Source of the DNA: Shigella phage KRT47
Sequence record: MN781580
Length of the DNA: 64,000 nt
Reading direction: 5' to 3' (one strand)
The position numbers were made by a program, and so were the translations under genes. The notes beneath the pieces are model-generated. The model saw only the letters and a list, made by a program, of their open reading frames with translations, made no database searches and was not told the DNA's origin. Of this stretch, positions 7,836 to 39,388 are shown one piece after another. Position 1 is the stretch's first letter. Every line of letters begins with the position of its first letter.

Positions 7836-7865
7836 ATAATACCACGGTTTGAACTTGTTGTAAAC
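7836..7865 (-). promoter_or_regulatory. early (sigma70-type) promoter
   Basis: minus strand GTTTAC, 18 nt, TATTAT, preceded by TTTCACAAAGTT upstream element. Confidence 0.65.
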
Positions 7866-7946
7866 AACTTTGTGAAAATTATTTTAGGGAATGATAAGAA
7901 GGGAACGATAGCTTAGAATGGTAATATACAGAATGTAAGAAAGAAA

Positions 7947-7959
7947 GGCCCAGAGGGCC
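7947..7959 (-). terminator. GC stem-loop (ggcccagagggcc)
   Basis: palindrome just 3' of the nrdH stop. Confidence 0.45.
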
Positions 7960-7963
7960 CGTC

Positions 7964-8272
7964 TTAGTCTTCTATGATATCTCTATCATATCCAAGTGAA
8001 ATGAGAGTTTCTTTGAAGTGTTTAATGTTCTTTTGTCTAGAATCATTAATGAAAATGACTGGATAACGAATGTTAAGAGATGTGAATCCAGCGCGTTTAG
8101 CAAGAGATACAATCAGCGGACGATCATACTCAATCTTACCATTATTTGTAAGAACTTTATAGAAAGTAAAAGGAGCATTGAGCTCCTTTAGAAGTTTTGT
8201 AACTGATTGACATCCAGGACAACGACCTACTTCATCTGGAATTCCATAGACTTCAATCTTATTTTGTTTCAC
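7964..8272 (-). CDS. nrdH: glutaredoxin-like protein (NrdH-type redoxin)
   Basis: 102 aa; CPGC redox motif near N-terminus; next to nrdG/nrdD. Confidence 0.7.
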   Translation of the reverse strand: MKQNKIEVYGIPDEVGRCPGCQSVTKLLKELNAPFTFYKVLTNNGKIEYDRPLIVSLAKRAGFTSLNIRYPVIFINDSRQKNIKHFKETLISLGYDRDIIED

Positions 8273-8274
8273 AA

Positions 8275-8487
8275 CTATTCCTTACTAAGAGCAGCATTCA
8301 GCTTGTTAGTAATTTTATCCAGACGCTTATTGAACTCACTAGAAGATAAGCCCTTTTCTGGAGAAATCAAACTAATCACGAAAAATATAGCAATAAAAGG
8401 AATAAGGAAAATAGCTCCAACTGCCATAAACAGAAAGAATGTTACAGTTGTAAGAAAATCAGCTAAACCTTTACGAAATTTATACAT
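8275..8487 (-). CDS. small membrane protein
   Basis: 70 aa with a central hydrophobic stretch of about 30 residues. Confidence 0.6.
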   Translation of the reverse strand: MYKFRKGLADFLTTVTFFLFMAVGAIFLIPFIAIFFVISLISPEKGLSSSEFNKRLDKITNKLNAALSKE

Positions 8488-8602
8488 ATTTTACCCTTAA
8501 TTGATTAACCAAGCATTGATAAGCACTAAACTATATTGCGAATAAAATTCTGGACCAAAATGAAAAATCATATCATTTATAGTATCCATAATGTAATTCA
8601 AT

Positions 8603-9073
8603 TTAATCATGTGTCCACACCCCATCGGTATTTGACCAAAGTCGCTGATTATCTGATCCTCGCCACAGCTTTTTAGTCGGAAGATTTTTCTCATACTTCC
8701 CATCAATAATAACATCAACATATTTAAGCATTTCTAGTTGTTTAATATCTTCAAACTTATATCCTGTCCACAACCAAATGCTTTTATTGGGATAAAGATT
8801 TTTAATAGTTTGAACCACAGAGTGAATCACGTCTCTGTTATCAGGATAAAGAGGGTCACCTCCGGTTATAGTTAATCCTTCTATATAATCATTATTCAAA
8901 CACTGAATCAGTTTTTCTAATGTCTCTCCGGTGAATGGAACGCCATTTCTAGCGTTCCATGTTGATTTATTATAACACCCTTCACATTTATGCAAACAAC
9001 CTGTAACGAAAAGAACGACCCTGCAACCAGGGCCATTCACAAAATCACAGGGATAAAATCTATCGTAATTCAT
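8603..9073 (-). CDS. nrdG: anaerobic ribonucleotide reductase activating protein (radical SAM)
   Basis: 156 aa; CxxxCxxC cluster (CLHKCEGC); overlaps nrdD stop. Confidence 0.88.
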   Translation of the reverse strand: MNYDRFYPCDFVNGPGCRVVLFVTGCLHKCEGCYNKSTWNARNGVPFTGETLEKLIQCLNNDYIEGLTITGGDPLYPDNRDVIHSVVQTIKNLYPNKSIWLWTGYKFEDIKQLEMLKYVDVIIDGKYEKNLPTKKLWRGSDNQRLWSNTDGVWTHD

Positions 9074-10887
9074 TGGTGTTTAACCCTATGCATGATTTCT
9101 TTATTTTTACCGAGATTAAATCCGCGCTCGTTCGGATTTCCCAAATAACCACATGTTCTTCTTATGGTATTCATCTTTTTAGGATCAGTTTCTCCACAAA
9201 TAGAACAAACAAATCCGTTTTCAGTAGGAGTCATTTCATGGGTACTTCCACATGTAAAACATTTATCTACTGGCATATTAACACCAAAATAATCTAAATG
9301 TTGTGCAGCATAATCCCATACGGCCTCAAGACCTTTTAAGTTATTTTTCATATCAGGAAGTTCAACATAAGAAATGTGACCACCTGTCGCAATGAAATGA
9401 TATGGCGCTTCACGAGAAATCTTTTCAAACGGAGTAATATTTTCTTCTACTGAAACATGGAAACTGTTAGTGTACCAGCCTTTATCGGTAACATCTTTTA
9501 CACTTCCATATTTTTCTGTATCAAGTTTACAGAAGCGATAACAAAGGTTTTCAGCAGGAGTCGAATATAAACTAAAAGCAAATCCAGTTCTTTCAGTCCA
9601 CTGTTTAAGATGAGCATTCATTTTAGTTAAAATTTCTCGTCCAATATCACGACCGACAAGAATATTCAATTCGTGAATACCAATGTATCCTAAAGACACT
9701 GAACTTCTACCGTTTTTAAATAACTCAATTATGTCGTCATCAGGTTTAAGACGAACCCCGAATGCACCTTCTTGGTAAAGAATAGGAGCAACAGTAGCTT
9801 TAACTCCTTTTAAGGAACTAATTCTACACATCAAAGCTTCAAAACATAAATCCATTCGTTCATTGAATAATTCAGCAAATTTCTGTTCATTGAACTGTGT
9901 TCCAATATAAGAATCTAACGCGATGCGAGGAAGATTCAGTGTTACAACACCAAGATTATTACGTCCATCAAGAATTTCATTACCAGTCGAATCTTTCCAT
10001 ACGCTCAAGAAACTACGGCATCCCATCGGAGAAACAGGAACAGATGAACCAGTGATAGCTTTATTGTTCTTAGCTGAAATAATATCAGGATACATCCTTT
10101 TGCTTGCACACTCTAGAGCAAGTTGCTTAATGTCGTAATTCGGATCGTCTTTATAAAGATTAACGCCTTCTTCAACGAACATAACAAGCTTAGGGAAAAT
10201 AGGAGTTATTCCATCACGACCAAGACCTTTAATACGATTTTTCAGAATTGCTTTCTGAATCATTCGTTCAGTCCAGTCAGTTCCCGTACCAAATGTAATT
10301 GTTACAAAAGGCGTTTGTCCGTTTGAACTAAAGAGAGTATTTACTTCATATTCATAAGCTTGGAATGCATCGTATACGTCTTTTTCTGTTTTAGATTGAG
10401 CATAATTCAACGCATCAGCGATTTGCCATTTTTCTGCATCCTCAATATGTTTTGCATAGGTGCGTTTAACATAAGGAGAAAGTACTTTATCTACATTCGC
10501 AAAAGTCGTTCCGCCATATTGATGGGAAGCAACTTGCGCAGTAATTTGTGCCATAATTGCAGTAGCAACGCCAATTGATTTAGGAGTTTCAATCTGTGCA
10601 TTACCAAGCTTAAATCCGTTCTCAAGCATTCCTTTTAAATCTACTAAACAGCAATTAGTAAATGGAAGAGCAGGGGAATAATCAATATCATGGAAATGAA
10701 TAATTCCGCTTTCATGCGCTTTCATAATAAAAGACGGGACCATATTTTTGGCAATGTGTTTAGACACAATACCAGCCATAAGGTCCCGTTGAGTTGGAAA
10801 AACACGAGAATCTTTATTAGCATTCTCGTTTAAAAGGTCTTTATTAGTTTTATGAATCAATCCTTCAATTTCTTTTTCAATTGTCAT
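9070..10887 (-). CDS. nrdD: anaerobic ribonucleoside-triphosphate reductase (glycyl radical enzyme), uninterrupted
   Basis: 605 aa continuous ORF; C-terminal Cys cluster and glycyl-radical motif RRTCGYLG. Confidence 0.93.
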   Translation of the reverse strand: MTIEKEIEGLIHKTNKDLLNENANKDSRVFPTQRDLMAGIVSKHIAKNMVPSFIMKAHESGIIHFHDIDYSPALPFTNCCLVDLKGMLENGFKLGNAQIETPKSIGVATAIMAQITAQVASHQYGGTTFANVDKVLSPYVKRTYAKHIEDAEKWQIADALNYAQSKTEKDVYDAFQAYEYEVNTLFSSNGQTPFVTITFGTGTDWTERMIQKAILKNRIKGLGRDGITPIFPKLVMFVEEGVNLYKDDPNYDIKQLALECASKRMYPDIISAKNNKAITGSSVPVSPMGCRSFLSVWKDSTGNEILDGRNNLGVVTLNLPRIALDSYIGTQFNEQKFAELFNERMDLCFEALMCRISSLKGVKATVAPILYQEGAFGVRLKPDDDIIELFKNGRSSVSLGYIGIHELNILVGRDIGREILTKMNAHLKQWTERTGFAFSLYSTPAENLCYRFCKLDTEKYGSVKDVTDKGWYTNSFHVSVEENITPFEKISREAPYHFIATGGHISYVELPDMKNNLKGLEAVWDYAAQHLDYFGVNMPVDKCFTCGSTHEMTPTENGFVCSICGETDPKKMNTIRRTCGYLGNPNERGFNLGKNKEIMHRVKHQ

Positions 10888-11357: not shown

Positions 11358-11406
11358 AATAAAACCCTTACCTTAAATAGATAAGGGTATTTATTATTTT
11401 CAAGTA

Positions 11407-11871: not shown

Positions 11872-11976
11872 TTAAGTCATTTATTGTTGGTTCATTATAT
11901 ACTGTTTCTTCATCAGTGTAAACCGGTTCTTCCGGCTCTGGCTCTACAGTTTCCCATCTAGCCGCCCACCAGGGTT

Positions 11977-12297: not shown

Positions 12298-12307
12298 TTT
12301 TCACCAA

Positions 12308-12478
12308 TTAATTTCGCAATTTATTAAGTTCTTCATAATCAATCCAGGATTCTAATCCTGATGGCAAATCAGATTCAATTTCCCAAAGAAGTTCTTCAAT
12401 TTTATGAAGACGATCTAGTTCTTCAGCAGAAATAGTAACCATTGACGGAGCTCTTGCTGCATTAATATCGTAAATCAT
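12308..12478 (-). CDS. hypothetical small protein
   Basis: start moved to internal Met to remove overlap with upstream gene. Confidence 0.45.
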   Translation of the reverse strand: MIYDINAARAPSMVTISAEELDRLHKIEELLWEIESDLPSGLESWIDYEELNKLRN

Positions 12479-12480
12479 AT

Positions 12481-12956: not shown

Positions 12957-12957
12957 A

Positions 12958-15460: not shown

Positions 15461-15488
15461 ATTAATCTCCTCAGTAGAAAGTAAGAAC

Positions 15489-15518
15489 ATTATACCACAT
15501 CCTTGTGGCAAAGTAAAC
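15489..15518 (-). promoter_or_regulatory. early (sigma70-type) promoter
   Basis: minus strand GTTTAC, 18 nt, TATAAT. Confidence 0.65.
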
Positions 15519-16537
15519 TAGTTCAGTGCATTTAGTGCATTGTTCAGTTTAGAACGTTGCTTCGTGAGATTTTTGACTTTTTCTTGTGCTTTTTCTAGCA
15601 TCTTTTCAGCTTCTAACACTTCATTGGTCGCTTTAACGAGTTCATCATCTACTGCCTTAAGGGACTTCTCAATCGCATCCGCGTGCCATTTTTCAACAGG
15701 TTTAAGACTCGGATTTTCAATAGGAAGAAAATTCACTTTATTGAATTTCCATGCATCTTTATTACCTGAACTATACATCCAAAATTTAGGATCATTTGAC
15801 GAGTAATTAGATAAATTTAAGTTATCTTGCACTTCCTGCTTTTTCTCTTGCGGGACTTCGTCCTTTCTCAAAAAATCGTATTTAAATGAAACGATCATAT
15901 CAAGTTCATATGATGTTGTATCTAACTTAAATCGTTCAAAACGAGGTAAAATCTTAGATTGAACAGCAGCAACAACATCCATATACTTAAATGCTTCTGT
16001 CAACTGTGATTTAAGACATTCACAAATTGAAAGAGAATTTTTAGTATTAGGCTTAAAGCTGATTCGCGCAGTTCGATTATTTTCTTTAGATGGTCTTACT
16101 TCCATTTGAAGAGTATAACCATCAAATTTCAGATTCTTTAAGTTAATATCAGAACCTTTTAATCGACTAGCCGTAGACAAAATTTGCTTTAATTGTTTAC
16201 GGAATAAAGCAATAAATCTCCATTCAAGACGATAATGATTTGGATTATAAAATCCCGTTGATAGATCAACTTTACTTTGACCAACGCCTTGAACAAGTAG
16301 AGGATTTTTATAATCAACAGTTTTACAGAAATCCATGAGCTGTTCACGGGCAGTCATTTGCGTAATATATCCAGCTTTATCAAAATGCCGCAACCATTCA
16401 GCGCTATTCAATGAGTTAAAGTGAATATTACGTGTAACTTTATCAGGGTCTAAATTATTTTCACATAAAAATGTTATGACATTACGAGTATAACTAGCAT
16501 TACGAACCATATCTTCAATTTGAGAACGAGTTTTCAT
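15518..16537 (-). CDS. hypothetical protein with C-terminal coiled coil (tandem set member 2)
   Basis: 339 aa; C-terminal EVLEAEKMLEKAQEKVKNLTKQRSKL. Confidence 0.7.
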   Translation of the reverse strand: MKTRSQIEDMVRNASYTRNVITFLCENNLDPDKVTRNIHFNSLNSAEWLRHFDKAGYITQMTAREQLMDFCKTVDYKNPLLVQGVGQSKVDLSTGFYNPNHYRLEWRFIALFRKQLKQILSTASRLKGSDINLKNLKFDGYTLQMEVRPSKENNRTARISFKPNTKNSLSICECLKSQLTEAFKYMDVVAAVQSKILPRFERFKLDTTSYELDMIVSFKYDFLRKDEVPQEKKQEVQDNLNLSNYSSNDPKFWMYSSGNKDAWKFNKVNFLPIENPSLKPVEKWHADAIEKSLKAVDDELVKATNEVLEAEKMLEKAQEKVKNLTKQRSKLNNALNALN

Positions 16538-18446: not shown

Positions 18447-18473
18447 TTTTGTTCCTCCGTAGTTGATAGTTGT

Positions 18474-18503
18474 ATAGTACCACAGAGGAATGGTCTTGTA
18501 AAC
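18474..18503 (-). promoter_or_regulatory. early promoter within a repeated cassette
   Basis: minus strand GTTTAC, 18 nt, TACTAT; flanked by conserved ACAACTATCAACT. Confidence 0.65.
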
Positions 18504-18505
18504 CA

Positions 18506-18820
18506 CTAAAAGAAACTTCTTTCACAATTTTTTCCACTGAACCAAGCGCTCACTGCTTTCTTAGTCTCAGGAGCAGTGTTATCCATAAACCATTCAAAAG
18601 CAGCCTTTTTATGATTCTGGAGGGCTTCTCGGGCTTTAATCTGCTCACGGTCTATTAACACTAACATATGAGCCTTTCTTGTCACCAAGGGCTTCTTATG
18701 ATTCTTGGAGTATTCCCAGTCATTTGTCCAACGCATTGTCGTTGCGAACTGATGAACCGCGTCTTTAATTTTAGTTTCGTAAATTTCACGAGCCTTTGAG
18801 TATAACATCACTACCTCCAT
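18506..18820 (-). CDS. hypothetical protein
   Basis: 104-aa ORF. Confidence 0.6.
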   Translation of the reverse strand: MEVVMLYSKAREIYETKIKDAVHQFATTMRWTNDWEYSKNHKKPLVTRKAHMLVLIDREQIKAREALQNHKKAAFEWFMDNTAPETKKAVSAWFSGKNCERSFF

Positions 18821-19878: not shown

Positions 19879-19912
19879 TTTATTCTCCAAATCCGTATCA
19901 GTTGATAGTTGT

Positions 19913-19942
19913 ATAGTACCATAAAGCTTTATGCTTGTAAAC
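19913..19942 (-). promoter_or_regulatory. early promoter within a repeated cassette
   Basis: minus strand GTTTAC, 18 nt, TACTAT. Confidence 0.65.
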
Positions 19943-19973
19943 AACTTTGTGAAAAATTTTTGAAATAAAAAAA

Positions 19974-19991
19974 GGGAGCCCGAAGGCTCCC
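19974..19991 (-). terminator. intrinsic terminator
   Basis: gggagcc-cgaa-ggctccc hairpin followed by a U-run on the minus strand, right after the stop of ORF 19994..21007. Confidence 0.65.
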
Positions 19992-19993
19992 TA

Positions 19994-21007: not shown

Positions 21008-21465
21008 TCAGCCTTATATTCAATAACAGGACATACTTTAGCTTTACGAGCTTTTAAAAATTCAACGATAATCGATTTCTTGGGTTGAATAGGAGGTAAA
21101 CCTTTATACGCCCTATCAATATTTTCTATGTGTAAAGCATAATCCTTTTTCCATTTATAATCTTTATATTTTTCATGCAAATGTGCAGGAATAACAAATG
21201 AACCAATAATAAGTAAAACAAGCAAAATGGCAAGTATAAATGCTGATGGAATAAGAGTCCATAAACTACCAAAAATAAGCCATTTCTGTATGATTTCTGC
21301 ACAGATAATAGTTAGACCTGCGAGTATAGTACATCCGAAAAAAGAAACGAAAAATGTAGGAATAACAACAGACCAAAAATATGCACACAGTGTCTTAGGT
21401 CGTTTCCATTCATCATTAAACATTTTGAATAATTTATAGTGCCAAGAGTTTTCATTAATAATCAT
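21004..21465 (-). CDS. integral membrane protein
   Basis: 153 aa with at least three long hydrophobic segments. Confidence 0.7.
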   Translation of the reverse strand: MIINENSWHYKLFKMFNDEWKRPKTLCAYFWSVVIPTFFVSFFGCTILAGLTIICAEIIQKWLIFGSLWTLIPSAFILAILLVLLIIGSFVIPAHLHEKYKDYKWKKDYALHIENIDRAYKGLPPIQPKKSIIVEFLKARKAKVCPVIEYKAE

Positions 21466-21467
21466 AA

Positions 21468-21989
21468 TTATCCTTTCATTGAAGGTGTAACAGTTGTTAA
21501 ATACTTAATCATAGCTTCAGCTTCTGATTTTGATAATGAAATTTCTCCATTGTTTTGACGAATAGAAATAAAATCCGGATGACGGTCACCACCAGCTTTT
21601 AAAATACACATATAAGTATCAGTTTCATCTTCAATATCTGAAATGATTGAAGCAGTTCCGCATGAATGTGGTTTTTGATAAATCAATGCAGCTTTTCTTC
21701 CACCGTTTGACTGTTCATAAACTTTTAACACATCAAACAAATCACTTCTTTTATCAATAGCTAAGATGTTGTTTTCATCTTCAATGTTAAATCCTTCGGA
21801 TACTTCATAAAGTGTCACCCATAAATCACCGATGTCAATAACAGCATTTCCTTTTCCACGACTTTCAAGAATATGACAAATTTTCTTGATTTCGTCATAA
21901 CTCATTTTAATAATATCATCTCCTTGAATAAGGAAGATGTCATTTTTAAATTTAACGCGAATTAAACCACTTCCACTTGAAATAAACAT
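21468..21989 (-). CDS. hypothetical protein (paralog pair member B)
   Basis: 173 aa; C-terminus SKSEAEAMIKYLTTVTPSM resembles the C-terminus of the neighbouring ORF. Confidence 0.65.
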   Translation of the reverse strand: MFISSGSGLIRVKFKNDIFLIQGDDIIKMSYDEIKKICHILESRGKGNAVIDIGDLWVTLYEVSEGFNIEDENNILAIDKRSDLFDVLKVYEQSNGGRKAALIYQKPHSCGTASIISDIEDETDTYMCILKAGGDRHPDFISIRQNNGEISLSKSEAEAMIKYLTTVTPSMKG

Positions 21990-22553: not shown

Positions 22554-22688
22554 AATTACATACTCCTTTGAATAATATCAATAATGTTGTTCACCAGATT
22601 ATAAGTAAACATCGGGTGATAATATTGAATCATCACATACACAACAAACAAAATTTTCATTCTCTTCTCCTTGGCAGTTGACAAGATT

Positions 22689-22718
22689 ACTATACCATAA
22701 CCTTGCCAACTTGTAAAC
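22689..22718 (-). promoter_or_regulatory. early promoter
   Basis: minus strand GTTTAC, 18 nt, TATAGT. Confidence 0.55.
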
Positions 22719-22720
22719 CA

Positions 22721-22894
22721 TTAAATGACGTTTTCAATAAAATTCTGAAGCTTTGTGTGAGCATCAACCATGATTTTCATTTCTTCCTTTGCGAAAGCTG
22801 TACCTCTTTCTCGAGCAGAATACTCATAGTCAGAAACTGCATTAGCATATTCTTCAATTAGCTTCATTAAAAACATCTGCTTTTCAGTTTTCAT
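22721..22894 (-). CDS. hypothetical small protein (57 aa, below ORF-track cutoff)
   Basis: ATG at 22894 preceded by AGGTGG; translation MKTEKQMFLMKLIEEYANAVSDYEYSARERG... Confidence 0.4.
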   Translation of the reverse strand: MKTEKQMFLMKLIEEYANAVSDYEYSARERGTAFAKEEMKIMVDAHTKLQNFIENVI

Positions 22895-23451: not shown

Positions 23452-23479
23452 GATGTTCTCCTCTTTATCCGATAGTTGT

Positions 23480-23509
23480 ATAGTACCACAGCTCAAACGG
23501 AAAGTAAAC
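23480..23509 (-). promoter_or_regulatory. early promoter within a repeated cassette
   Basis: minus strand GTTTAC, 18 nt, TACTAT. Confidence 0.65.
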
Positions 23510-23524
23510 CGGTAAAATGAAAAA

Positions 23525-23542
23525 AGTCTCCCGAAGGAGACT
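23525..23542 (-). terminator. intrinsic terminator
   Basis: agtctcc-cgaa-ggagact hairpin followed by a U-run on the minus strand. Confidence 0.6.
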
Positions 23543-26641: not shown

Positions 26642-27179
26642 TTACTATTTCCAAAAGTTTATTATTTTTAAGGTAATTAGCCTTTTCTAGGACTTCAGAA
26701 GCATATTTAGAACCTGCTTTAACATTCCATCCCGAATTATAAGAGGATATTGCTTTTCTTATATCGCCCTTATGTATATTTAACCAATAAGAAAGTTCAA
26801 TGTACGCCCAGGAAGCTGAATTGGACCGTTTATTCAACATTCTTTTTATTTCAGCATCGGTCATATTATAACCAAGTTCCTTAACTCTTGCTCGCATAGT
26901 AGGCAAATAATTTTGGAACATTCCGTAGGCGTGATGCTTTGGTTTAGATTTTAAATTAACTCCGCCAGAGCTTTCTTGCCATAAAATGGCTGCCATTATA
27001 TGACCTAATCCGCTCTTGTGGATATTTTTGTGTGTTTTATATTTTCCATCCTTAGAAAATTGTTCCCCGAATTGATACGCGTAACGCATGTTATCGAGTT
27101 GGACATTACTGAAAGTATGCTCGGAGCTATGTGCCATCATTGAAATGGCCAATAGACCAGCGAGTAGTGCTTTTCTCAT
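26634..27179 (-). CDS. secreted lytic-transglycosylase-like protein
   Basis: 181 aa; signal peptide MRKALLAGLLAISMMAHS; ES...GMFQ...YN motif arrangement reminiscent of SLT domain. Confidence 0.6.
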   Translation of the reverse strand: MRKALLAGLLAISMMAHSSEHTFSNVQLDNMRYAYQFGEQFSKDGKYKTHKNIHKSGLGHIMAAILWQESSGGVNLKSKPKHHAYGMFQNYLPTMRARVKELGYNMTDAEIKRMLNKRSNSASWAYIELSYWLNIHKGDIRKAISSYNSGWNVKAGSKYASEVLEKANYLKNNKLLEIVND

Positions 27180-27648: not shown

Positions 27649-27675
27649 GTTATTCTCCTCTTAACTGATAGAAAA

Positions 27676-27705
27676 ATTATACCACAGTCAAGAGGAAAAG
27701 TAAAC
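27676..27705 (-). promoter_or_regulatory. early promoter for regB
   Basis: minus strand GTTTAC, 18 nt, TATAAT, followed by AGGAG RBS and the regB ATG. Confidence 0.7.
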
Positions 27706-27707
27706 AG

Positions 27708-27986
27708 TTATTCTTTAAATCTAATCAATTTATTCATAGACTTTGAAACTTCTGCACGAACCTCATGTAGGTTTTTGAGCTGTTCAAGACGCTGCTCATA
27801 GTAAGCAATTTCATCTTCTTCGAGACAGTCCTGTGAATCTTCTTTAAGATAACGTGCATAGTCCTGGAAAGCTTTACGGACTACTTCCTGGAAGTCATCA
27901 AGACTTTGAATTTTCTTAGGAGCAACAGATACACGACGAGGGGCAGTATAATACTCATAACCAAACCCTGCGCTTAATTGAGCCAT
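27708..27986 (-). CDS. hypothetical small protein
   Basis: start at [13 protein letters not shown] Met giving TAATG overlap. Confidence 0.5.
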
Positions 27987-29844: not shown

Positions 29845-30318
29845 TTATTTGAACGATTTAACGTACTGAATAGAACCTTTACTATTTACAAAGGCAATTT
29901 TACCATTTTTATTATACATGGTAGCAGTACGTTGATAGCCATAAGTTTGTTTACCAGATTGATAACCAACTAATGCAAAATTATCTTCACCCATTTTATT
30001 CTGTTTAGCGCGAATGCGTTCATGACCATGTGCCATAAGAACCTTAGCGTCGCCAGTTGCAATGGATCTACGAGTTTTTTCATCTTCAACTGTATTAACA
30101 AAGTCGTCAAATGAATCAAATTTAGCATGAGATTTATTATACAGTTTTCCATCTACTGCATAATTATATCCCTGTACATCCATCTCAACTTCTGTACCAT
30201 CATCCAATACAGCAGTGATTTTTTGACCTTTTTTAAATTTCAAAAGATCAGTAAAAGATTCAGCAATAATTTGAGAATTAATAGCTGCTTCAGTAATAAA
30301 TTCTTGATATGTTTTCAT
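29845..30318 (-). CDS. internal (capsid-packaged) protein with capsid-targeting sequence
   Basis: 157 aa; N-terminus MKTYQEFITEA matches the T-even internal-protein capsid-targeting sequence. Confidence 0.75.
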   Translation of the reverse strand: MKTYQEFITEAAINSQIIAESFTDLLKFKKGQKITAVLDDGTEVEMDVQGYNYAVDGKLYNKSHAKFDSFDDFVNTVEDEKTRRSIATGDAKVLMAHGHERIRAKQNKMGEDNFALVGYQSGKQTYGYQRTATMYNKNGKIAFVNSKGSIQYVKSFK

Positions 30319-30334
30319 GTGTATCCTTTAATTT

Positions 30335-30652
30335 TTATTCTTTAGGGAAGTTTTTAGAATATGCATCATAAAGCTTATTTCCAATACGGCGGAAAACTCT
30401 AGCAGCAAAACGATTTTCTGGGTTTTTAATCATGATTTGCATCATATAAGTACCCGCGTCAGAAAGAGCTTCTTCATAGTACCCGTTAATTTCTTTAAGA
30501 GTCCTACGTTTACCACCAGGACCATCAACAGTGATTTTCCATTTACCTGTAGAAGTGCGACTTGGCGGCTCAACTTGTTCAATCCAGATATAACCGCCTT
30601 CTACACGTTGTCCTGCAGCAGATTCTGCAATAAATTCTTTATACGTTTTCAT
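30335..30652 (-). CDS. internal (capsid-packaged) protein with capsid-targeting sequence
   Basis: 105 aa; N-terminus MKTYKEFIAES. Confidence 0.75.
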   Translation of the reverse strand: MKTYKEFIAESAAGQRVEGGYIWIEQVEPPSRTSTGKWKITVDGPGGKRRTLKEINGYYEEALSDAGTYMMQIMIKNPENRFAARVFRRIGNKLYDAYSKNFPKE

Positions 30653-30706
30653 GTGTTTCCTTTAAATATTTTAATTAGTAATTTATCTATTCAAGTAACT
30701 GTGAAT

Positions 30707-30736
30707 ATACTATCACAATTCCAAGAGAAAGTAAAC
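30707..30736 (-). promoter_or_regulatory. early-type promoter upstream of internal-protein gene
   Basis: minus strand GTTTAC, 18 nt, TAGTAT. Confidence 0.5.
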
Positions 30737-30740
30737 AACT

Positions 30741-31709
<969 letters not shown>

Positions 31710-33552: not shown

Positions 33553-33558
33553 TTATCA

Positions 33559-34152: not shown

Positions 34153-34209
34153 AGTATTTCCTTAGATTGATACAATTAGATAATATCACGTTTTTAATAG
34201 ATTGTAAAC

Positions 34210-34545
34210 TTATTCTTCGTCTATCTCATCGATAAAGACGTCAATGGCCTCGATAACGGCATCATTGATAGCCAATAAAGTAAAATCGTCGTCAGTACCT
34301 TTATAAGATTCTGAAGCATTGATATATGCTTGATTGACGAGTTCCCAAGCCTTTTTAAAATAAGGAGCTTCATCATCAGGACAAATATCCCGCACACCTT
34401 CAAAGATACGATTGGCATAATCTAACACCCATTGTACAGGCATGTTTTGAGAACGTTCGTTAAACTCTTTAAATTCCTTAGATTCAAAAAGCTCTTCAGG
34501 ATAATAATTTCGATTACAAAAAGCTTTACTAAAGTTACGTTTCAT
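34210..34545 (-). CDS. hypothetical acidic protein
   Basis: 111-aa ORF. Confidence 0.6.
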   Translation of the reverse strand: MKRNFSKAFCNRNYYPEELFESKEFKEFNERSQNMPVQWVLDYANRIFEGVRDICPDDEAPYFKKAWELVNQAYINASESYKGTDDDFTLLAINDAVIEAIDVFIDEIDEE

Positions 34546-34600
34546 AATGTTCTCCTCAAGTTACAGGCTCATAATATCTCAATCATGAGCCTGTGTAAAC

Positions 34601-34864
34601 TTATTTCATATTATTGAAATATTCTTCTGCGATTTCGTCGTTATCATGGTAAACTTTAGAAGACAGTTTAACATAACCTTCTGCTGTGAACATGTTAATC
34701 ACAACCTTTACAGTATACCACTGACCGTCTTCATTACCCATTACTGCGTAAGTTTCAAACATCGGATGATCAGGACCGATAACTTTAATATCATTCACTG
34801 TACGACCGAAATCTTCTGAAACGCATTTCATAAAGAAGTTGAACAGTTCGCCGTAATTATCCAT
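34601..34864 (-). CDS. hypothetical protein
   Basis: start at MDNYGELF Met at 34864 after promoter and GGAGAATG RBS. Confidence 0.6.
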   Translation of the reverse strand: MDNYGELFNFFMKCVSEDFGRTVNDIKVIGPDHPMFETYAVMGNEDGQWYTVKVVINMFTAEGYVKLSSKVYHDNDEIAEEYFNNMK

Positions 34865-34908
34865 TTCATTCTCCAAGTTGTTTTTCTGTATCAGTAGTTG
34901 ATAGTTGT

Positions 34909-34938
34909 ATAGTACCATGGAAGAACGGGGATGTAAAC
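34909..34938 (-). promoter_or_regulatory. early promoter within a repeated cassette
   Basis: minus strand GTTTAC, 18 nt, TACTAT. Confidence 0.65.
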
Positions 34939-35104
34939 AGTTTTGTGAAAAAATTTTTAAAAAGTTTTAGGGAATTCTAGGGAGGGAAGGGGCAGTTAAA
35001 GGATAGGATAATATATTATAAAGGGTAGAAACTAAATGATGCCTAGAGAGATCCAGAAAGGCCTAGATGCCAAAAAGCCCTATCATTTAGATAGGGATTT
35101 AAAA

Positions 35105-35668
35105 TTATTTATCTAGTTTAGTTATTATAGCTTCTGCGGCAGCTTTTAGCTTAGATGCGGTGTTAATACGATTTTTAATTTCAGTATACGCATCGCCAAG
35201 AACATCAAGGCTATCAGAATAAACACTTACACTATTGCGTTCGCTATTTGAAATAGAACCTTTAGTTTTACGATCAAAATCGGTGTACACGTCTTGAAGA
35301 TCACGGGCTGCCTTCTTTGCATCATCCAATGCATCAAGAGCTTTATTCAAAGCATTAACGTATTTTTTAGTGTCGAACATATTCTTAGAAATTTTAACAG
35401 GTGCGCGTTCAGGAGTAGCTAACACAGATTTAGGAACCTGAGCGCCAGATGCCAATTTCTTAGAAATTTTGAAAAATGCTTTGTTGAATTTATTTTCTTG
35501 ACTCATTGTAAAAGAACTATTATCGATGTTGTACATTTCAATAGCTTTAGCTTTCCACTTAAGAAAATCGCCGCGGTCTTTTGGGTCCAAGTGGAAAAAT
35601 ACTTTAGTAAGATCTGCTTCAGATGGTAATTTTGCTGCTTCGGTTAAAAATTCGGCATAGGTTTTCAT
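35105..35668 (-). CDS. internal-protein-like gene with capsid-targeting sequence
   Basis: 187 aa; N-terminus MKTYAEFLTEAAK. Confidence 0.7.
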   Translation of the reverse strand: MKTYAEFLTEAAKLPSEADLTKVFFHLDPKDRGDFLKWKAKAIEMYNIDNSSFTMSQENKFNKAFFKISKKLASGAQVPKSVLATPERAPVKISKNMFDTKKYVNALNKALDALDDAKKAARDLQDVYTDFDRKTKGSISNSERNSVSVYSDSLDVLGDAYTEIKNRINTASKLKAAAEAIITKLDK

Positions 35669-35762
35669 TTAAAATCCTTGAAATAATTTATCGGTTGGTT
35701 ATTAATTATTTATTACTTTGTTATTATCCGTAACAGCATTCTCTATGTGATTCAAACTAAAA

Positions 35763-35786
35763 AGCCCCAACCTTTCGGCTGGGGCT
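35763..35786 (-). terminator. intrinsic terminator
   Basis: gcccca...tttc...tggggc hairpin followed by a U-run on the minus strand. Confidence 0.6.
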
Positions 35787-35793
35787 AAGAATG

Positions 35794-36267
35794 TTATTTG
35801 ATTTGTTTAGCAGACCAAATGCGGTCTTTAATAATCTTTTGGATGTCTTCAACATACTCTAGGTCATGAGCATGTGGATTATCTTTGAAACTATAGGCAC
35901 GGGCTAACTTTTGGCCTTCGGTTTTGATTACTAAAAGCTCTTTAAGGATAGCTTCATATTTAGCGATAATTCCTTTAACAATATTTTTTTCTTGTGCAGC
36001 TTTATGATCTGCTTTAGGAGCAGGTTTACCCGAAGCCTTTGCAAAAGCAGCGCCAGTAGCAACTAAACTTTTCCAGGCCATACTAACTGCATTTCCCGTA
36101 AATCCTTCTGCTTTCATGTCGCGAGCAAACTGGAATCGTGATTCGTCAGAAGCATCTTTATAGGAATATTTACCCGCTGCAATGGCTGCTTTTGCGACAG
36201 CTTGAATTTCGGTGCTAGATGCTTCATTTAACACCGCTTCATTTAAAAATTGAGCATATGATTTCAT
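35794..36267 (-). CDS. internal-protein-like gene with capsid-targeting sequence
   Basis: 157 aa; N-terminus MKSYAQFLNEA. Confidence 0.7.
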   Translation of the reverse strand: MKSYAQFLNEAVLNEASSTEIQAVAKAAIAAGKYSYKDASDESRFQFARDMKAEGFTGNAVSMAWKSLVATGAAFAKASGKPAPKADHKAAQEKNIVKGIIAKYEAILKELLVIKTEGQKLARAYSFKDNPHAHDLEYVEDIQKIIKDRIWSAKQIK

Positions 36268-36306
36268 CTTATTTCCTGTTTTAATTCGTGATTTAATATA
36301 CTACTA

Positions 36307-36314
36307 TATTTATA
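36307..36314 (-). promoter_or_regulatory. late promoter (TATAAATA)
   Basis: minus strand TATAAATA about 40 nt upstream of the ATG of ORF 35794..36267. Confidence 0.5.
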
Positions 36315-36320
36315 CCAAAA

Positions 36321-36344
36321 AGCCCCAACCTTTCGGTCGGGGCT
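36321..36344 (-). terminator. intrinsic terminator (second copy of the 35763 hairpin)
   Basis: near-identical agccccaacctttcgg(t/c)(c/t)ggggct hairpin followed by a U-run. Confidence 0.6.
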
Positions 36345-36349
36345 AAGCC

Positions 36350-36655
36350 TTGCGGCAACCTTGTCGGGGTTCCACCTGCTAAGGCAAGTGTTTGTACGAA
36401 ACGCCGGGATTCGAACCCGGTTATTAAGCAGTTGACGCTACTTAATATTTTTAAAAGGCCATATCTCGACCATATCCGAACGTTCCGTCAAAAACGCTAC
36501 TCGGCTTACGGCAAAGATATTTCCTCGAATCGATAATTCGGTGCGCCGTTTCTGCTGTGATGTAAGAGGGCATCAACAAATCATAAAGATTTATTAACAC
36601 GATTCCTTACCCAGGGAACATCAGTCCGACGACTTACCGGTAGCGACCCGGTTTC
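36350..36655 (-). ncRNA. candidate structured small RNA(s) with tRNA-like T-arm
   Basis: about 300 nt without ORF between a CDS and a terminator; minus strand has CCGGG-TTCGAAT-CCCGG T-arm-like element plus a 7-bp pairing resembling an acceptor stem; no CCA, no clean cloverleaf. Confidence 0.35.
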
Positions 36656-37006
36656 TTAATATTCTTTTAAAGCATCAATCTGTTCACGACGTTTACGCCA
36701 TAAATCAATTGCTTCATACGCAGATTCAGCATTTCGAATTGGACGGCATTTATATAAAGACTTGTGATTTTGATATTGCGTAGATAACGGAATTTTATCT
36801 AAAAGGTCTTTACGTTCAAAGTATTCGTAACCATCTAAGCCAAATGAACGATTTTTGAGAAATTGCCAATGACCAAATTCGTTTTGAATATAAATATAAT
36901 CCGCGTGTTGATAAAGTAAATTAATTTCACGAAATGAGATATGTTTTTCATATTCATTGAAGTAAAATGTTAAATCATGAACTACTAAATAAACATTACC
37001 TTTCAT
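36656..37006 (-). CDS. hypothetical protein
   Basis: 116-aa ORF downstream of the tRNA cluster. Confidence 0.65.
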   Translation of the reverse strand: MKGNVYLVVHDLTFYFNEYEKHISFREINLLYQHADYIYIQNEFGHWQFLKNRSFGLDGYEYFERKDLLDKIPLSTQYQNHKSLYKCRPIRNAESAYEAIDLWRKRREQIDALKEY

Positions 37007-37024
37007 ATTTTCCTCACTTATAAT

Positions 37025-37100
37025 TGGTCGAGGCAGTAGGGATCGAACCTACGACCTAGGACTTAGAAGGTCCTTGCTCTTCCTTCTGAGCTATGCCCCG
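37025..37100 (-). tRNA. tRNA-Arg (anticodon TCT)
   Basis: 76-nt cloverleaf on minus strand; anticodon loop CTTCTAA; T-loop GGTTCGATCC; CCA encoded. Confidence 0.85.
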
Positions 37101-37104
37101 TAAT

Positions 37105-37180
37105 TGGGGTGACCGATGGGAGTCGAACCCATGACTACGAGAATCACAATCTCGAGTTCTACCAACTGAACTACGGCCAC
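37105..37180 (-). tRNA. tRNA-His (anticodon GTG)
   Basis: 76-nt cloverleaf; anticodon stem CGAGA/TCTCG with loop TTGTGAT; discriminator C; CCA encoded; no encoded G-1. Confidence 0.7.
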
Positions 37181-37294
37181 ATTAATACCTACTCCAACAA
37201 TCAAGATGTCTTCACACGAAATTAAGAGAAGAGTGATCAGTTCAACCCCGATAATCGCGTCAAGTAGATATTAATGTGACAGTTGTCACAAATT

Positions 37295-37369
37295 TGGCGG
37301 ACGTGATAGGATTCGAACCTATAACCAATCGCTTAACAGGCGATCGCTCTGCCATTGAGCTACACATCC
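37295..37369 (-). tRNA. tRNA-Asn (anticodon GTT)
   Basis: 75-nt cloverleaf; anticodon stem ATCGC/GCGAT with loop CTGTTAA; T-loop TTCGAAT; CCA encoded. Confidence 0.85.
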
Positions 37370-37373
37370 AAAT

Positions 37374-37460
37374 TGGTGGGGAGTGATGGAGTCGAACCAC
37401 CCGAGTCGCAATGACAATGAATTTACAGTCCACACCGCTACCTCTACGGGATAACTCCCC
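37374..37460 (-). tRNA. tRNA-Tyr (anticodon GTA), long variable arm
   Basis: 87-nt type II structure; acceptor GGGGAGT/ACTCCCC; anticodon loop CTGTAAA; CCA encoded. Confidence 0.8.
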
Positions 37461-37469
37461 AAATTAATT

Positions 37470-37544
37470 TGGTGGCCCTGGGTGGAATTGAACCACCATC
37501 TGGCGATTATGAGTCGCTTGCTTGAACCTTCCAGCTACAGGGCC
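37470..37544 (-). tRNA. tRNA-Ile2/Met (anticodon CAT)
   Basis: 75-nt cloverleaf; anticodon loop CTCATAA; abuts tRNA-Thr as in the known T4 Thr-Ile dimeric precursor. Confidence 0.8.
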
Positions 37545-37545
37545 T

Positions 37546-37621
37546 TGGTGCTGATTGACGGAATCGAACCGCCGACCTTCTCATTACAAGTGAGTTGCTC
37601 TACCTACTGAGCTAAATCAGC
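37546..37621 (-). tRNA. tRNA-Thr (anticodon TGT)
   Basis: 76-nt cloverleaf; anticodon loop CTTGTAA; CCA encoded. Confidence 0.85.
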
Positions 37622-37626
37622 AAAAT

Positions 37627-37716
37627 TGGCGGAGGCGATAGGATTTGAACCTATGAGTCGCCGGAGCGACTGCCGGTTTTCAAGACCGGTGCATTAAACC
37701 ACTCTGCCACGCCTCC
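37627..37716 (-). tRNA. tRNA-Ser (anticodon TGA), long variable arm
   Basis: 90-nt type II structure; anticodon stem CCGGT/ACCGG with loop CTTGAAA; variable-arm hairpin GTCGC/GCGAC. Confidence 0.85.
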
Positions 37717-37718
37717 AG

Positions 37719-37792
37719 TCTCCATACAAGGATTTGAACCTTGGACCTCCTGATCCCAAATCAGGCGCTCTACCAAACTGAGCTACACGGAG
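37719..37792 (-). tRNA. tRNA-Pro (anticodon TGG), CCA not encoded
   Basis: 74-nt cloverleaf; anticodon loop TTTGGGA; 3' end abuts tRNA-Ser (dimeric precursor arrangement). Confidence 0.8.
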
Positions 37793-37802
37793 TAAATTAA
37801 AT

Positions 37803-37876
<74 letters not shown>

Positions 37877-37881
37877 AAATT

Positions 37882-37968
37882 TGGTGCGAGAAGTGGGACT
37901 CGAACCCACAAGGAAATCATTCCGCAGCATTTTAAGTGCTGTGCCTTTACCAATTTGACCATTCTCGC
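37882..37968 (-). tRNA. tRNA-Leu (anticodon TAA), long variable arm
   Basis: 87-nt type II structure; anticodon stem CAGCA/TGCTG with loop CTTAAAA; CCA encoded. Confidence 0.85.
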
Positions 37969-37969
37969 G

Positions 37970-38042
37970 CTGGGAATAAAGGACTCGAACCTTTGCATCC
38001 TGGAATCAAAATCCAGTGCCTTACCAACTTGGCTAATTCCCA
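37970..38042 (-). tRNA. tRNA-Gln (anticodon TTG), CCA not encoded
   Basis: 73-nt cloverleaf starting with U1-A72 pair; anticodon stem CTGGA/TCCAG with loop TTTTGAT; abuts tRNA-Leu. Confidence 0.8.
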
Positions 38043-38139
38043 ATTATTAACAAAGGCTCTCAAGCAAGAACCCTTGATGATAGAGGGTATTAATCAGTGC
38101 GATATGAGTTAATAATAACAAATAATTCTTAAAGCATAT

Positions 38140-38427
38140 TTACCATTTATGATAATACATATTTACGATGCATTCAAGACCCAAAGGATTCTTGAAAATA
38201 TCATATTCAAGAGGACCTTTTTCTGTTTCAATAAAGAAATCAAAATTTACTGTATTAAATTTACGGTCTTCCTTCACTAATTTAACTTGAGAAGATGAAC
38301 GGTCAATGTAAACCTTTTCAACTTCAAAATATGTTAAAATGCCATAATCATCAATCAAGGCTTTAGCCGCGTCTTGATCATATTTATATCCATTTTCAAT
38401 GGATGATACTTTCGCATAAAGAATCAT
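38140..38427 (-). CDS. hypothetical protein
   Basis: 95-aa ORF. Confidence 0.6.
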   Translation of the reverse strand: MILYAKVSSIENGYKYDQDAAKALIDDYGILTYFEVEKVYIDRSSSQVKLVKEDRKFNTVNFDFFIETEKGPLEYDIFKNPLGLECIVNMYYHKW

Positions 38428-38429
38428 TA

Positions 38430-38813
38430 TCAGCCTTCATCAACAATAGTATGAGTATGGGCATTTACAATTTGCCACCAGTCAAAACGATTAGAACCAT
38501 ACATCGGTTTATTTTCATTTTCTTTAATAATATCACGAAGTTCATCTTCGGTAGCGGCTTTCGCGATTAAATCAGCATATCCACCACGAGGATAATAATT
38601 ATCACCTGCAAAAAGTAAAAAGTTTGGTTTAATATTATTGAACTCTTCAAGAGTAATAACTTTTCCTGATGGTAGTTGAACAATCTCTACATATTTATAT
38701 CCTAATTTTTGAGCAGCATCTACTGCTTCAAGCAAAGTATCATGAGCCCATCCAATTTGACAACCTGGCTTTTCAGATGGATTAGCCTGATAATCCGCAT
38801 ACACTTTATACAT
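38430..38813 (-). CDS. hypothetical protein
   Basis: start at MYKVYADYQ Met with AAAGGTGA RBS. Confidence 0.6.
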   Translation of the reverse strand: MYKVYADYQANPSEKPGCQIGWAHDTLLEAVDAAQKLGYKYVEIVQLPSGKVITLEEFNNIKPNFLLFAGDNYYPRGGYADLIAKAATEDELRDIIKENENKPMYGSNRFDWWQIVNAHTHTIVDEG

Positions 38814-38814
38814 T

Positions 38815-39000
38815 CTATTCACCTTTAGAAATTTTATCCATAACGATAGCAATTAAACCAATTAAAAATGCTACTACAAGTGAAAACACATTTTCTGCTG
38901 TAGTTAATAATCCACATATAAATCCAACAAACATTGAAAAACTAAAAGCAGAAGCAGAAATTGCAATAGCAACATTTCGAATTAATTCACAGCGTTTCAT
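38815..39000 (-). CDS. small membrane protein
   Basis: 61 aa, two hydrophobic helices; preceded by GAGGAG RBS and an early promoter. Confidence 0.6.
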   Translation of the reverse strand: MKRCELIRNVAIAISASAFSFSMFVGFICGLLTTAENVFSLVVAFLIGLIAIVMDKISKGE

Positions 39001-39028
39001 TTTATTCTCCTCAGTAGTTGATAGGGTA

Positions 39029-39058
39029 ATAGTATCACAACTAAAACCCTATGTAAAC
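39029..39058 (-). promoter_or_regulatory. early promoter within a repeated cassette
   Basis: minus strand GTTTAC, 18 nt, TACTAT. Confidence 0.65.
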
Positions 39059-39070
39059 AACTTTGTGAAA

Positions 39071-39328
39071 TTATTTTAAATCTTCTAATCGTTTCTTCAT
39101 CTTAGAACCATTTTTAGCAATTTCTCCTGCATCGGAGCATAACGCTAAAAGTGCTTTAACTTTAGTTTGGTCTCCTTTAAAAGACGAAGGATCGACTGCA
39201 GCAGCAAGTTCTTTAATACGAGAGAAAAGACGCTCAGCTTCAGCTAAAGCCATTCCAAGCTTTACTTCCATACCGTGAGAAGATTCAGTGATAGTAGTTT
39301 TTGTAGCAAACTCTTTGAAAGTTTTCAT
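39071..39328 (-). CDS. internal-protein-like small protein (divergent capsid-targeting sequence)
   Basis: 85 aa; N-terminus MKTFKEFATKTTITE; located where T4 ipI sits next to 57B. Confidence 0.6.
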   Translation of the reverse strand: MKTFKEFATKTTITESSHGMEVKLGMALAEAERLFSRIKELAAAVDPSSFKGDQTKVKALLALCSDAGEIAKNGSKMKKRLEDLK

Positions 39329-39358
39329 TTTATTTTCCTAATTAATTTTGATGAGATA

Positions 39359-39388
39359 ATAGTATCACTACCTCATCAGCATGTAAAC
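39359..39388 (-). promoter_or_regulatory. early promoter within a repeated cassette
   Basis: minus strand GTTTAC, 18 nt, TACTAT; near-identical to the cassette at 39029-39058. Confidence 0.65.

Follow-up and report, generated by a model that had tools for sequence, protein, structure and literature searches.

Early promoters of phage T4 carry GTTTAC at -36 to -31 and an A-rich, UP-like region at -40 to -44 (Nolan et al. 2006), and they have been described as an "uber" UP/-35/TGn/-10 type with extra consensus regions (Hinton 2010). The early-promoter consensus for T4/PST was given as TTTACW-N17-TAYWAT (Comeau et al. 2014). A primer-extension stop is available for the T4 mobD.5 promoter (Durand 2006), and T4 regB was described as having a "typical early promoter". 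Promoter-early stem-loops (PeSLs) were defined in RB49/phi1 (Arbiol 2010) and extended to T4/PST and KVP40/nt-1 (Comeau 2014). Before that, the internal-protein loci of T-even phages had been put forward as comparable cases (Repoila et al. 1994, cited by Arbiol 2010 and Comeau 2014). Both the T4-type early promoters and the role proposed for them in gene shuffling (2010, 2014) have thus been published before. We analyzed a repeated promoter element in a 64,000-nucleotide (nt) stretch of Shigella phage KRT47 (sequence record MN781580), referred to here as the window, and compared it to these systems.

The repeats in the window are the known early-promoter set of a T4-like phage, and the feature is real and highly non-random. 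A scan of the whole window for GTTTAC-N18-TACTAT returned 6 exact matches, all on the minus strand, against a chance expectation of 0.04. These were the six cassettes listed in an earlier note on this DNA, all of which were found exactly where that note had placed them and on the minus strand only. With a position-weight matrix built from the sites, the minus strand yielded 15 strong sites and the plus strand zero, compared to 0.23 in Markov-simulated sequence. All 15 were located in the early block (1-42.8 kb) and none in the late block (42.8-64 kb), at a density of approximately one predicted start point per 2.9 kb and in the same orientation as the early genes. We give site coordinates as G(-36), the first base of GTTTAC on the minus strand. 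Five "related copies" placed by the note at 7836, 15489, 22689, 27676, and 30707 were also real sites; each of these positions is where a -10 box ends on its 3' side, and the matching G(-36) coordinates are 7865, 15518, 22718, 27705, and 30736. The box at 22689 was TATAGT, however, a variant that the note did not list. Four strong sites were absent from its list (G(-36) at 34600, 34209, 11923, and 7420).

The sites were mostly 25-55 nt 5' of a start codon, and 13 of the 15 lay in the small interval that separates a stop codon from the Shine-Dalgarno site of the following gene. The other 2 were intragenic, with 11923 in the small open reading frame 49.1 (5' of pin) and 7420 in the small open reading frame 55.5 (5' of 55.4). 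Sites of intermediate score at 40866 (5' of gene 1), 30845, 32293, and 2433 were left out of the 15. When the matrix threshold was lowered to 8 bits, only noise-level matches were obtained in the window (about 10 per strand expected). A generic sigma-70 scan of the window (TTGACA/TATAAT) gave 88 matches compared to 82 expected, and because there was no enrichment, the phage-specific pattern and the position-weight matrix were used instead. The signal is carried by the phage-specific extended pattern only.

Judged by sequence identity, the window is a Tequatrovirus (T4-like) genome, approximately 97% identical to UFV13, HP3, and Sf24. A 6-kb piece covering the repeats matched many Tequatrovirus phages (UFV13, Sf24, HP3) over its full length at 96.5-97.6% identity. 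Comparison with the annotated UFV13 and T4 records determined the window to be collinear with T4 genes 46 to 4, in the order 46, 47, a-gt, 55, nrdH/G/D, 49, pin, nrdC to nrdC.11; mobD.x genes, rI, tk, vs, regB, internal-protein genes, e, nudE, e.2-e.8; and tRNA cluster, ipI-locus gene, 57B/A, 1, 3, 2, 4. All genes up to approximately 42.8 kb are on the minus strand, and plus-strand late baseplate genes follow. The repeats fall in the classical early "hyperplastic" part of the T-even genome.

The 15 sites and the hairpins associated with them are listed below. Hairpins were assessed by per-sequence folding with shuffle controls (dG, folding free energy; z, score against the controls), and their arms sit at different registers in different promoters.

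39339..39400, minus strand: Ip5 promoter, G(-36) 39388, TACTAT, right after the 57B stop codon (Ip5 is 39071..39328); embedded hairpin TGATGAGGTAGTG / TATTATCTCATCA, dG -14.8, z -3.4; T4 ortholog at 46940 of the T4 stretch (L002).
39009..39070, minus strand: trna.4 promoter, G(-36) 39058, right after Ip5 (trna.4 is 38815..39000); hairpin ATAGGGT / ACCCTAT flanking the -10 box; identity to the 39388 copy 72% over -66..+13; RB14 has an 82-nt junction duplication here.
34889..34950, minus strand: e.8 promoter, G(-36) 34938; matches the full consensus of the earlier note with 3 or fewer mismatches; no embedded hairpin.
34551..34612, minus strand: e.7 promoter, G(-36) 34600, TATTAT, with the e.8 stop codon TAA adjoining GTTTAC; 13-bp hairpin ACAGGCTCATGAT / ATTATGAGCCTGT, dG -20.0, z -4.95, with a compensatory C:G vs T:A change against T4; indel breakpoints at 34556-34601.
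34160..34221, minus strand: e.6 promoter, G(-36) 34209, TATTAT; breakpoint of the e.7 replacement at 34171.
30687..30748, minus strand: promoter after the lysozyme gene e, G(-36) 30736, TAGTAT; downstream are internal-protein-like genes 30335..30652 and 29845..30318 (Ip4-like); breakpoints at 30662-30752 in UFV13, CM8, and G4498.
27656..27717, minus strand: regB promoter, G(-36) 27705, TATAAT; hairpin of spacer arm TTTTCCTCTTGACTG and CAGTTAAGAGGAGAA over the regB Shine-Dalgarno site, dG -21.6, z -7.3.
23525..23542, minus strand: terminator-like hairpin AGTCTCCTTCGGGAGACT then TTTTTT, directly 5' of the mobD.5 promoter.
23460..23521, minus strand: mobD.5 promoter, G(-36) 23509, TACTAT.
22669..22730, minus strand: mobD.2a/mobD.2 promoter, G(-36) 22718, TATAGT; 15-bp hairpin AGTTGGCAAGGTTAT / ATAGTAATCTTGTCAACT with G.U pairs, dG -19.0, z -4.9; the T4 version pairs perfectly.
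19973..19992, minus strand: terminator-like hairpin AGGGAGCCTTCGGGCTCCCT then TTTTTTT, after nrdC.11 and 5' of the nrdC.10 promoter.
19893..19954, minus strand: nrdC.10 promoter, G(-36) 19942, the sole exact match to the full consensus; CM8 has a 493-nt insertion here (breakpoint 19890-19902) and a chimeric cassette.
18454..18515, minus strand: nrdC.8 promoter, G(-36) 18503, one of the six TACTAT copies; hairpin of spacer arm TTCCTCTGTGGT and ACTACGGAGGAA over the Shine-Dalgarno site, dG -15.8, z -4.0.
15469..15530, minus strand: nrdC.4 promoter, G(-36) 15518, TATAAT.
11874..11935, minus strand: early-promoter-like site in 49.1, 5' of pin, G(-36) 11923, TATAAT, without TGn; kept in T4, UFV13, RB14, CM8, G4498, and JK45.
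7816..7877, minus strand: 55.6 promoter, G(-36) 7865, TATTAT, with TTTCACAAAGTT upstream.
7371..7432, minus strand: weakest of the 15 sites, in 55.5, 5' of 55.4, G(-36) 7420, TATAAT, without TGn, score 19.5.

When the 15 sites were aligned, information peaked at A in -42 to -40, GTTTAC at -36 to -31, TGTG at -17 to -14, and TAnTAT at -12 to -7. CTAT at -2 to +2 and GGA at +13 to +15, the Shine-Dalgarno site, were also conserved. An A-rich, UP-like region was present, with the A at -40 invariant. GTTTAC (with T, not G, at -33) and the 17-nt spacer to TAnnAT were found in 15/15 sites, and the extended -10 TG at -15/-14 was found in 12/15, the exceptions being 34600, 11923, and 7420. The earlier note had described the copies as almost identical over roughly 60 bp, each reading one quoted consensus; neither description held. 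Mean identity of the six TACTAT copies over -48 to +13 was 63% (range 46-74%), and their 13 central spacer positions were 35% identical, compared to 27% for random 61-mers. A motif search of the window for the full quoted 55-nt consensus found only 2 sites with 3 or fewer mismatches (19942 and 34938), and the match was exact only at 19942. TTTCACAAAGTT was exact in 3 of the six TACTAT copies and in 4 of the 15 sites overall, and ACAACTATCAACT in 3 of the six. Since the contact blocks are conserved and the spacers are free, these data suggest that the similarity is mainly due to functional constraint and not to recent copying.

The start region CTATCAA (-2 to +5) was common to the T4-like lineage (ACAACTATCAACT) and the lineage of phage JK45 (AGACCTATCAAAACAAA); given this conservation, most early RNAs would begin AUCAA. 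An extra copy, TTTCACAAAACT...TACTAT ACAACTATCAACT, was observed in T4 near the cut end of imm.1, at 12-102 of the T4 stretch (T4 27011-27101). It was 87% identical over 98 nt to the e.8 promoter of the window and lies outside the region equivalent to the window. The exact 18-mer TTTCACAAAGTTGTTTAC was present in 19 stretches of T-even-sized IMG/VR contigs.

Each of the 15 sites was matched by an ortholog at the corresponding gene junction in T4 and UFV13, with 93-99% identity to T4 over the aligned part of 329-nt queries, and orthologs at the same junctions were also found in RB14, CM8, and G4498 for 15/15 sites. Phage JK45 (78% identical) carried 19 sites of this kind in its equivalent region, every one of them on the minus strand. 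The anatomy, the strand and position bias, and the orthology are direct observations. The consensus match to the published T4 set and the positional orthologs of all 15 sites in T4 point to strong sigma70-type early promoters, as the earlier note had proposed, and we consider it very likely that the sites are sigma-70-dependent early promoters (Pe) of a T4-like phage. A few points weigh against this identification. The sites at 11923 and 7420 are intragenic and lack TGn, so that their activity may be low or absent. In the T4 GenBank record there are no annotated promoters for a cross-check, and a genome-wide T4 start-site or cappable-seq data set was looked for in the available literature and not found. 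Initiation right after infection is predicted from orthology to T4, whose regB and mobD.5 promoters are treated as working promoters in published work.

Two other identities were weighed. The sites could be middle (MotA/AsiA-dependent) or late (gp55-dependent) promoters, and TGn -10 boxes do occur in roughly half the middle promoters (Hinton 2010). However, the MotA box (a/t)(a/t)(a/t)TGCTT(t/c)A centered at -30 was present in 0/15 aligned sites, all of which had GTTTAC at -36 to -31, and the late consensus TATAAATA was also present in 0/15, occurring elsewhere in the window near 36300. With no MotA box and no TATAAATA at any of the 15 sites, a middle- or late-promoter identity was rejected as extremely improbable. 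The copies could alternatively be recent duplicates of a small mobile DNA element (a transposed repeat, such as one resembling a miniature inverted-repeat transposable element) that merely looks like a promoter. The 39388/39058 pair, with 72% identity over 79 nt and 27 nt shared 5' of the -35 box, would agree with such copying. However, the spacers were 35% identical, near the random level, the copies had no terminal repeats and no target duplications, and every copy was at the same gene junction in T4, UFV13, RB14, CM8, and G4498. Conservation was also confined to the polymerase-contact blocks, and all copies were co-oriented with the genes. The near-random spacers, the orthologous positions, and the lack of terminal repeats led us to reject this origin, which is scarcely more probable than the previous one.

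As early promoters, the sites could work in the following way. The A-tract at -44 to -40, resembling a proximal UP element, would be contacted by the alpha C-terminal domain, and the sigma-70 holoenzyme would contact GTTTAC(A/T) through region 4, TGn through region 3, and TAnnAT through region 2. These polymerase contacts are those of established T4 biology. Transcription would start at the A approximately 7 nt 3' of the -10 box, inside the conserved CTATCAA, and would yield a short-leader mRNA with a GGAG-type Shine-Dalgarno site. Initiation may occur immediately after infection, by host RNA polymerase that is either unmodified or Alt-modified, and Alt may stimulate it. The 30-80 nt of shared sequence would also provide recombination homology at a few hot loci, namely the two internal-protein loci, e.7, and the nrdC.11/nrdC.10 junction. 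Approximately 40% of the promoters lie inside a hairpin that could form only in RNA read through from upstream, and the hairpin may have a role of its own.

The earlier note had likened the repeats to PeSL cassettes. That resemblance was supported, and it is already published for T4/PST with the same consensus (Comeau 2014). The note had further concluded that the flanked genes are therefore mobile modules, which was correct in part. In a synteny comparison of the window with five close relatives (T4, UFV13, RB14, CM8, G4498), which also served for the indel test, only Ip5 and e.7 varied, and 5 of 7 promoter-flanked segments were conserved in all five. Conserved segments were nrdC.8-.10, mobD.2a-.5, e.8, and 55.5/55.6. 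The "ATPase" of the note is nrdC.10, which is weakly AAA-like and conserved in the five relatives. Synteny chaining allowed 150-nt overlaps, since the cassette repeats overlap at junctions.

A broader explanation would make the cassettes PeSL-type mobile regulatory modules, and the flanked genes would be gained, lost, and exchanged chiefly by recombination between them. Several loci fit this explanation. Ip5 (39071..39328) stands where T4 and UFV13 have ipI, with its left breakpoint inside the 39058 cassette and its right breakpoint 23 nt from the edge of the 39388 cassette. RB14 carries both Ip5 and ipI, and the junction shows a duplicated 82-nt cassette. Yet other gene arrays occupy the ipI locus in CM8 and G4498. 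Between the 34600 and 34209 cassettes, e.7 is replaced in RB14, CM8, and G4498. Insertions fall in two promoters, one of 235 nt within the 34600 promoter in UFV13 and one of 493 nt at +4..+16 of the 19942 promoter in CM8, and the second internal-protein locus has its right edge inside the 30736 promoter. Chimeric cassettes were observed directly: RB14 38829 joins a trna.4-type spacer to an ip-type leader, and CM8 41759 and 21053 switch sequence right after CTATCAA. These chimeras, together with the 82-nt or 69-nt cassette duplications at insertion junctions, show crossovers inside cassettes, and the crossovers in the -10..+8 block agree with those mapped in RB49 mini-circles (Arbiol 2010). Each extra gene in the relatives came with its own promoter in a promoter scan, 8/15 sites had a stem-loop as the PeSL definition demands (6 overlapping and 2 upstream terminator hairpins), and the model is published for T4/PST (Comeau 2014).

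In contrast, 29 of the 39 distinct indel or replacement events between the window and the five relatives touched no cassette, and 10 did. Many of the non-cassette events were homing-endonuclease or intron insertions (mobB, mobC, I-TevII, mobD, seg-like, and HNH genes). The excess at cassettes was significant against a uniform null (p = 4e-4), but not clearly so against a gene-junction null (p = 0.03-0.5), which we consider the fairer one. When JK45 was added, 8/12 promoter junctions were affected compared to 38/76 others (Fisher p = 0.22), although this phage mostly adds alignment ends at every divergent intergenic region and so inflates the null. The 5 conserved segments also count against the explanation, and diversifying selection on the internal proteins alone could make those loci hot. 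Taken together, we find it rather doubtful that recombination between cassettes is the main driver. In this region, exchange through the cassettes can be seen chiefly at e.7, at both internal-protein loci, and at one further junction (nrdC.11/nrdC.10), and the shuffling interpretation holds only in part.

Other differences from the relatives were also observed. CM8 (L004) has a tandem duplication of a unit made of a 57B fragment, Ip5, and ipI at 40438-42560, with the cassettes repeated at 42089/41759/41393 and 41115/40785/40419. The T4 homing-endonuclease genes mobB, mobC, I-TevII (with the nrdD intron), mobD, and segB are absent from the window, where their positions correspond to 4552, 9053-9073, 10349, 21008-21971, and 36656-37525. 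At the mobD position the window has two unrelated open reading frames instead, as do RB14, UFV13, and G4498. Eleven tRNA genes are present at 37025-38042 on the minus strand (Arg, His, Asn, Tyr, Met/Ile-CAU, Thr, Ser, Pro, Gly, Leu, Gln), compared to eight in T4 and ten in RB14, which lacks tRNA-His.

Six of the 15 promoters (39388, 39058, 34600, 27705, 22718, and 18503) lie within an inverted repeat, with the 5' arm in the spacer and the 3' arm in the start region or leader. The minimum free energies of these six hairpins were -14 to -21.6 kcal/mol over 54 nt (z -2.3 to -7.3), a level that only 5% of 54-mers drawn at random from the genome attained. Only 2 promoters (19942 and 23509) had a classic GC hairpin with a T-run just upstream, and the remaining 7 sites had no stem-loop. 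None of the overlapping hairpins was followed by a U-run, and hence they are not intrinsic terminators; the only terminator-like hairpins at the promoters were those at 19992-19973 and 23542-23525. The promoter-overlapping hairpin is the "SL" of PeSL and not a new structure. In the PeSL papers, stem-loops of this kind are taken for terminators and sites of recombination; a translational-insulator role is not the reading given there. A possible novelty lies in the pairing partner of the hairpins, which at regB and nrdC.8 is the Shine-Dalgarno site.

These hairpins could be RNA switches, closed in read-through RNA and open in promoter-started RNA, which would lack the 5' arm. Such a switch would block translation of the downstream gene, and possibly RegB cleavage at GGAG, and would supplement the promoter explanation, not replace it. 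The proportion of folding promoters is in favor of this: 6/15 reached a dG of -14 or lower over 54 nt, and in JK45, 12/19 promoters had z of -2.8 or lower, each compared to 5% for random sequence. The 3' arm extends over the Shine-Dalgarno site in both regB and nrdC.8. Three lineages of regB, including IMG/VR relatives, have three complementary arm pairs over GGAG (TTTTCCTCTTGACTG/CAGTTAAGAGGAGAA, TTCTCCTCTAGTTG/CAACTAGAGGAGAA, and TCTCCTGTAAG/CTTACAGGAGA); the MAFFT alignment under RNAalifold mis-registers the regB of the window, so that the RNAalifold result understates regB pairing. Shine-Dalgarno pairing at nrdC.8 was kept with other arms, CTCCAGTAG/CTACTGGAG compared to TTCCTCTGTGGT/ACTACGGAGGAA, in a distant lineage from IMG/VR whose protein is 68-70% identical. 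The denV promoter has arms CTCCTGTAG/CTACAGGAG in T4 and TTCCTCCAAG/CTTGGAGGAA in UFV13, G4498, and JK45. Compensatory changes in the arms were observed directly, with C:G to T:A at the e.7 promoter compared to T4. Among the 24 strong hairpins, G.U pairs made the sense strand 2.6 kcal/mol more stable than its antisense counterpart (Wilcoxon p = 0.003), which points to RNA and not to a DNA cruciform. Between the 30736 promoter and regB, terminator prediction gave no candidates. Such control is already established for e, soc, 49, and I-TevI at their late promoters (Uzan & Miller 2010), and RegB is known to be inhibited by RNA structure.

Other observations do not favor a switch. Stem-loops that overlap the -35 and -10 boxes or lie between them were already described by Arbiol 2010 and taken there for terminators or attenuators. 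The 3' arm stops before the Shine-Dalgarno site in 4 of the 6 hairpins of the window, and in one lineage of nrdC.8 relatives (L019) the hairpin flanks the -10 box instead. Read-through into the hairpin genes is itself a prediction. We place the switch explanation just short of an even chance, and hold the translational-insulator role of the hairpins at that level or slightly under it. A tentative suggestion, which we rate a little below the switch explanation, is that a fair share of the early promoters of T-even phages also serve as RNA switches, with the 5' arm in the spacer and the 3' arm in the conserved start region or over the Shine-Dalgarno site (regB, nrdC.8, denV). If true, read-through RNA would be closed and shielded from RegB, and synthesis of these proteins would be limited to the minutes of early-promoter firing. 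The hairpins would then be a simple cis-acting tie of regB, denV, and nrdC.8 translation to their own promoter, and a further reason why the spacers of strong phage promoters cannot drift freely.

The promoter finding itself is of little consequence, as this is one more Tequatrovirus, and the hairpins are a side observation of modest importance if confirmed. The 15 predicted start points located here can be used for annotation, since the GenBank records of these phages, T4 included, are without promoter features. The shuffling model is tempered, because most differences in gene content between close relatives in the 43-kb early region are homing endonucleases or have breakpoints outside the promoters.

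The internal-protein genes of the window differ from those of T4. Compared to T4 (37940-39416 of the T4 stretch), the window at 29845-30652 has no denV, ipII, or ipIII, and has in their place an Ip4-like gene (DUF7412, 157 amino acids) and a 105-amino-acid ip-like gene, much as in RB14. Two genes that lie away from both classical internal-protein loci, at 35105-35668 and 35794-36267 (minus strand), have capsid-targeting-like leaders, MKTYAEFLTEAA and MKSYAQFLNEAV, comparable to those of Ip4, the 105-amino-acid gene, and Ip5 (MKTYQEFITEAA, MKTYKEFIAESA, and MKTFKEFATK). T4 lacks most of the interval that holds these two genes, and Arbiol 2010 remarked that T-even genomes have no internal-protein genes elsewhere. 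A strong terminator hairpin, AGCCCC(A/G)(G/A)CCGAAAGGTTGGGGCT then TTTTT, is present in two copies 558 nt apart, at 35763-35786 and 36321-36344 (minus strand). These belong to a repeat family (D6, 35719-35789 / 36277-36347), and each precedes one leader-bearing gene. The late-type TATAAATA near 36300 follows the second terminator hairpin.

Compared to the T4 early promoters, the sites share GTTTAC, the A-rich -40..-44 region, the 17-nt spacer, TGn, TAnnAT, conserved positions near +1, and a location 5' of early genes on the early-transcribed strand. There was no material difference; TACTAT is more common than TATAAT here, as it is at the same T4 sites. Compared to the T-even internal-protein polymorphism (Repoila et al. 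1994), as represented in Arbiol 2010 and Comeau 2014, the exchanges of ipI for Ip5 and of ipII/ipIII for Ip4 plus the 105-amino-acid gene appear alike, as do the early promoter of each gene and the conserved MKTY..E leader. No difference was seen from what those papers relate, and the window is one more allele combination. The likeness to the PeSLs lies in a strong early promoter, a stem-loop that may be over the -10 box or in the spacer, an intergenic position, crossovers between the -10 box and the ATG, and cassettes flanking variable internal-protein genes and small open reading frames. The differences are that a convincing stem-loop was found at only 8/15 sites, that the overlapping hairpins lack a U-run and hence are not classic terminators, and that the indel excess at cassettes was not clearly above the gene-junction null. 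The predicted hairpins would resemble those of e, soc, 49, and I-TevI (Uzan & Miller 2010) in having a Shine-Dalgarno-sequestering helix whose 5' arm lies upstream of an internal start, so that only read-through RNA is closed. In those genes, the internal promoter is late and the aim is delayed translation, whereas here the promoter is early and the 5' arm lies in the -35/-10 spacer; regB, nrdC.8, and denV are not among the cases in that review.

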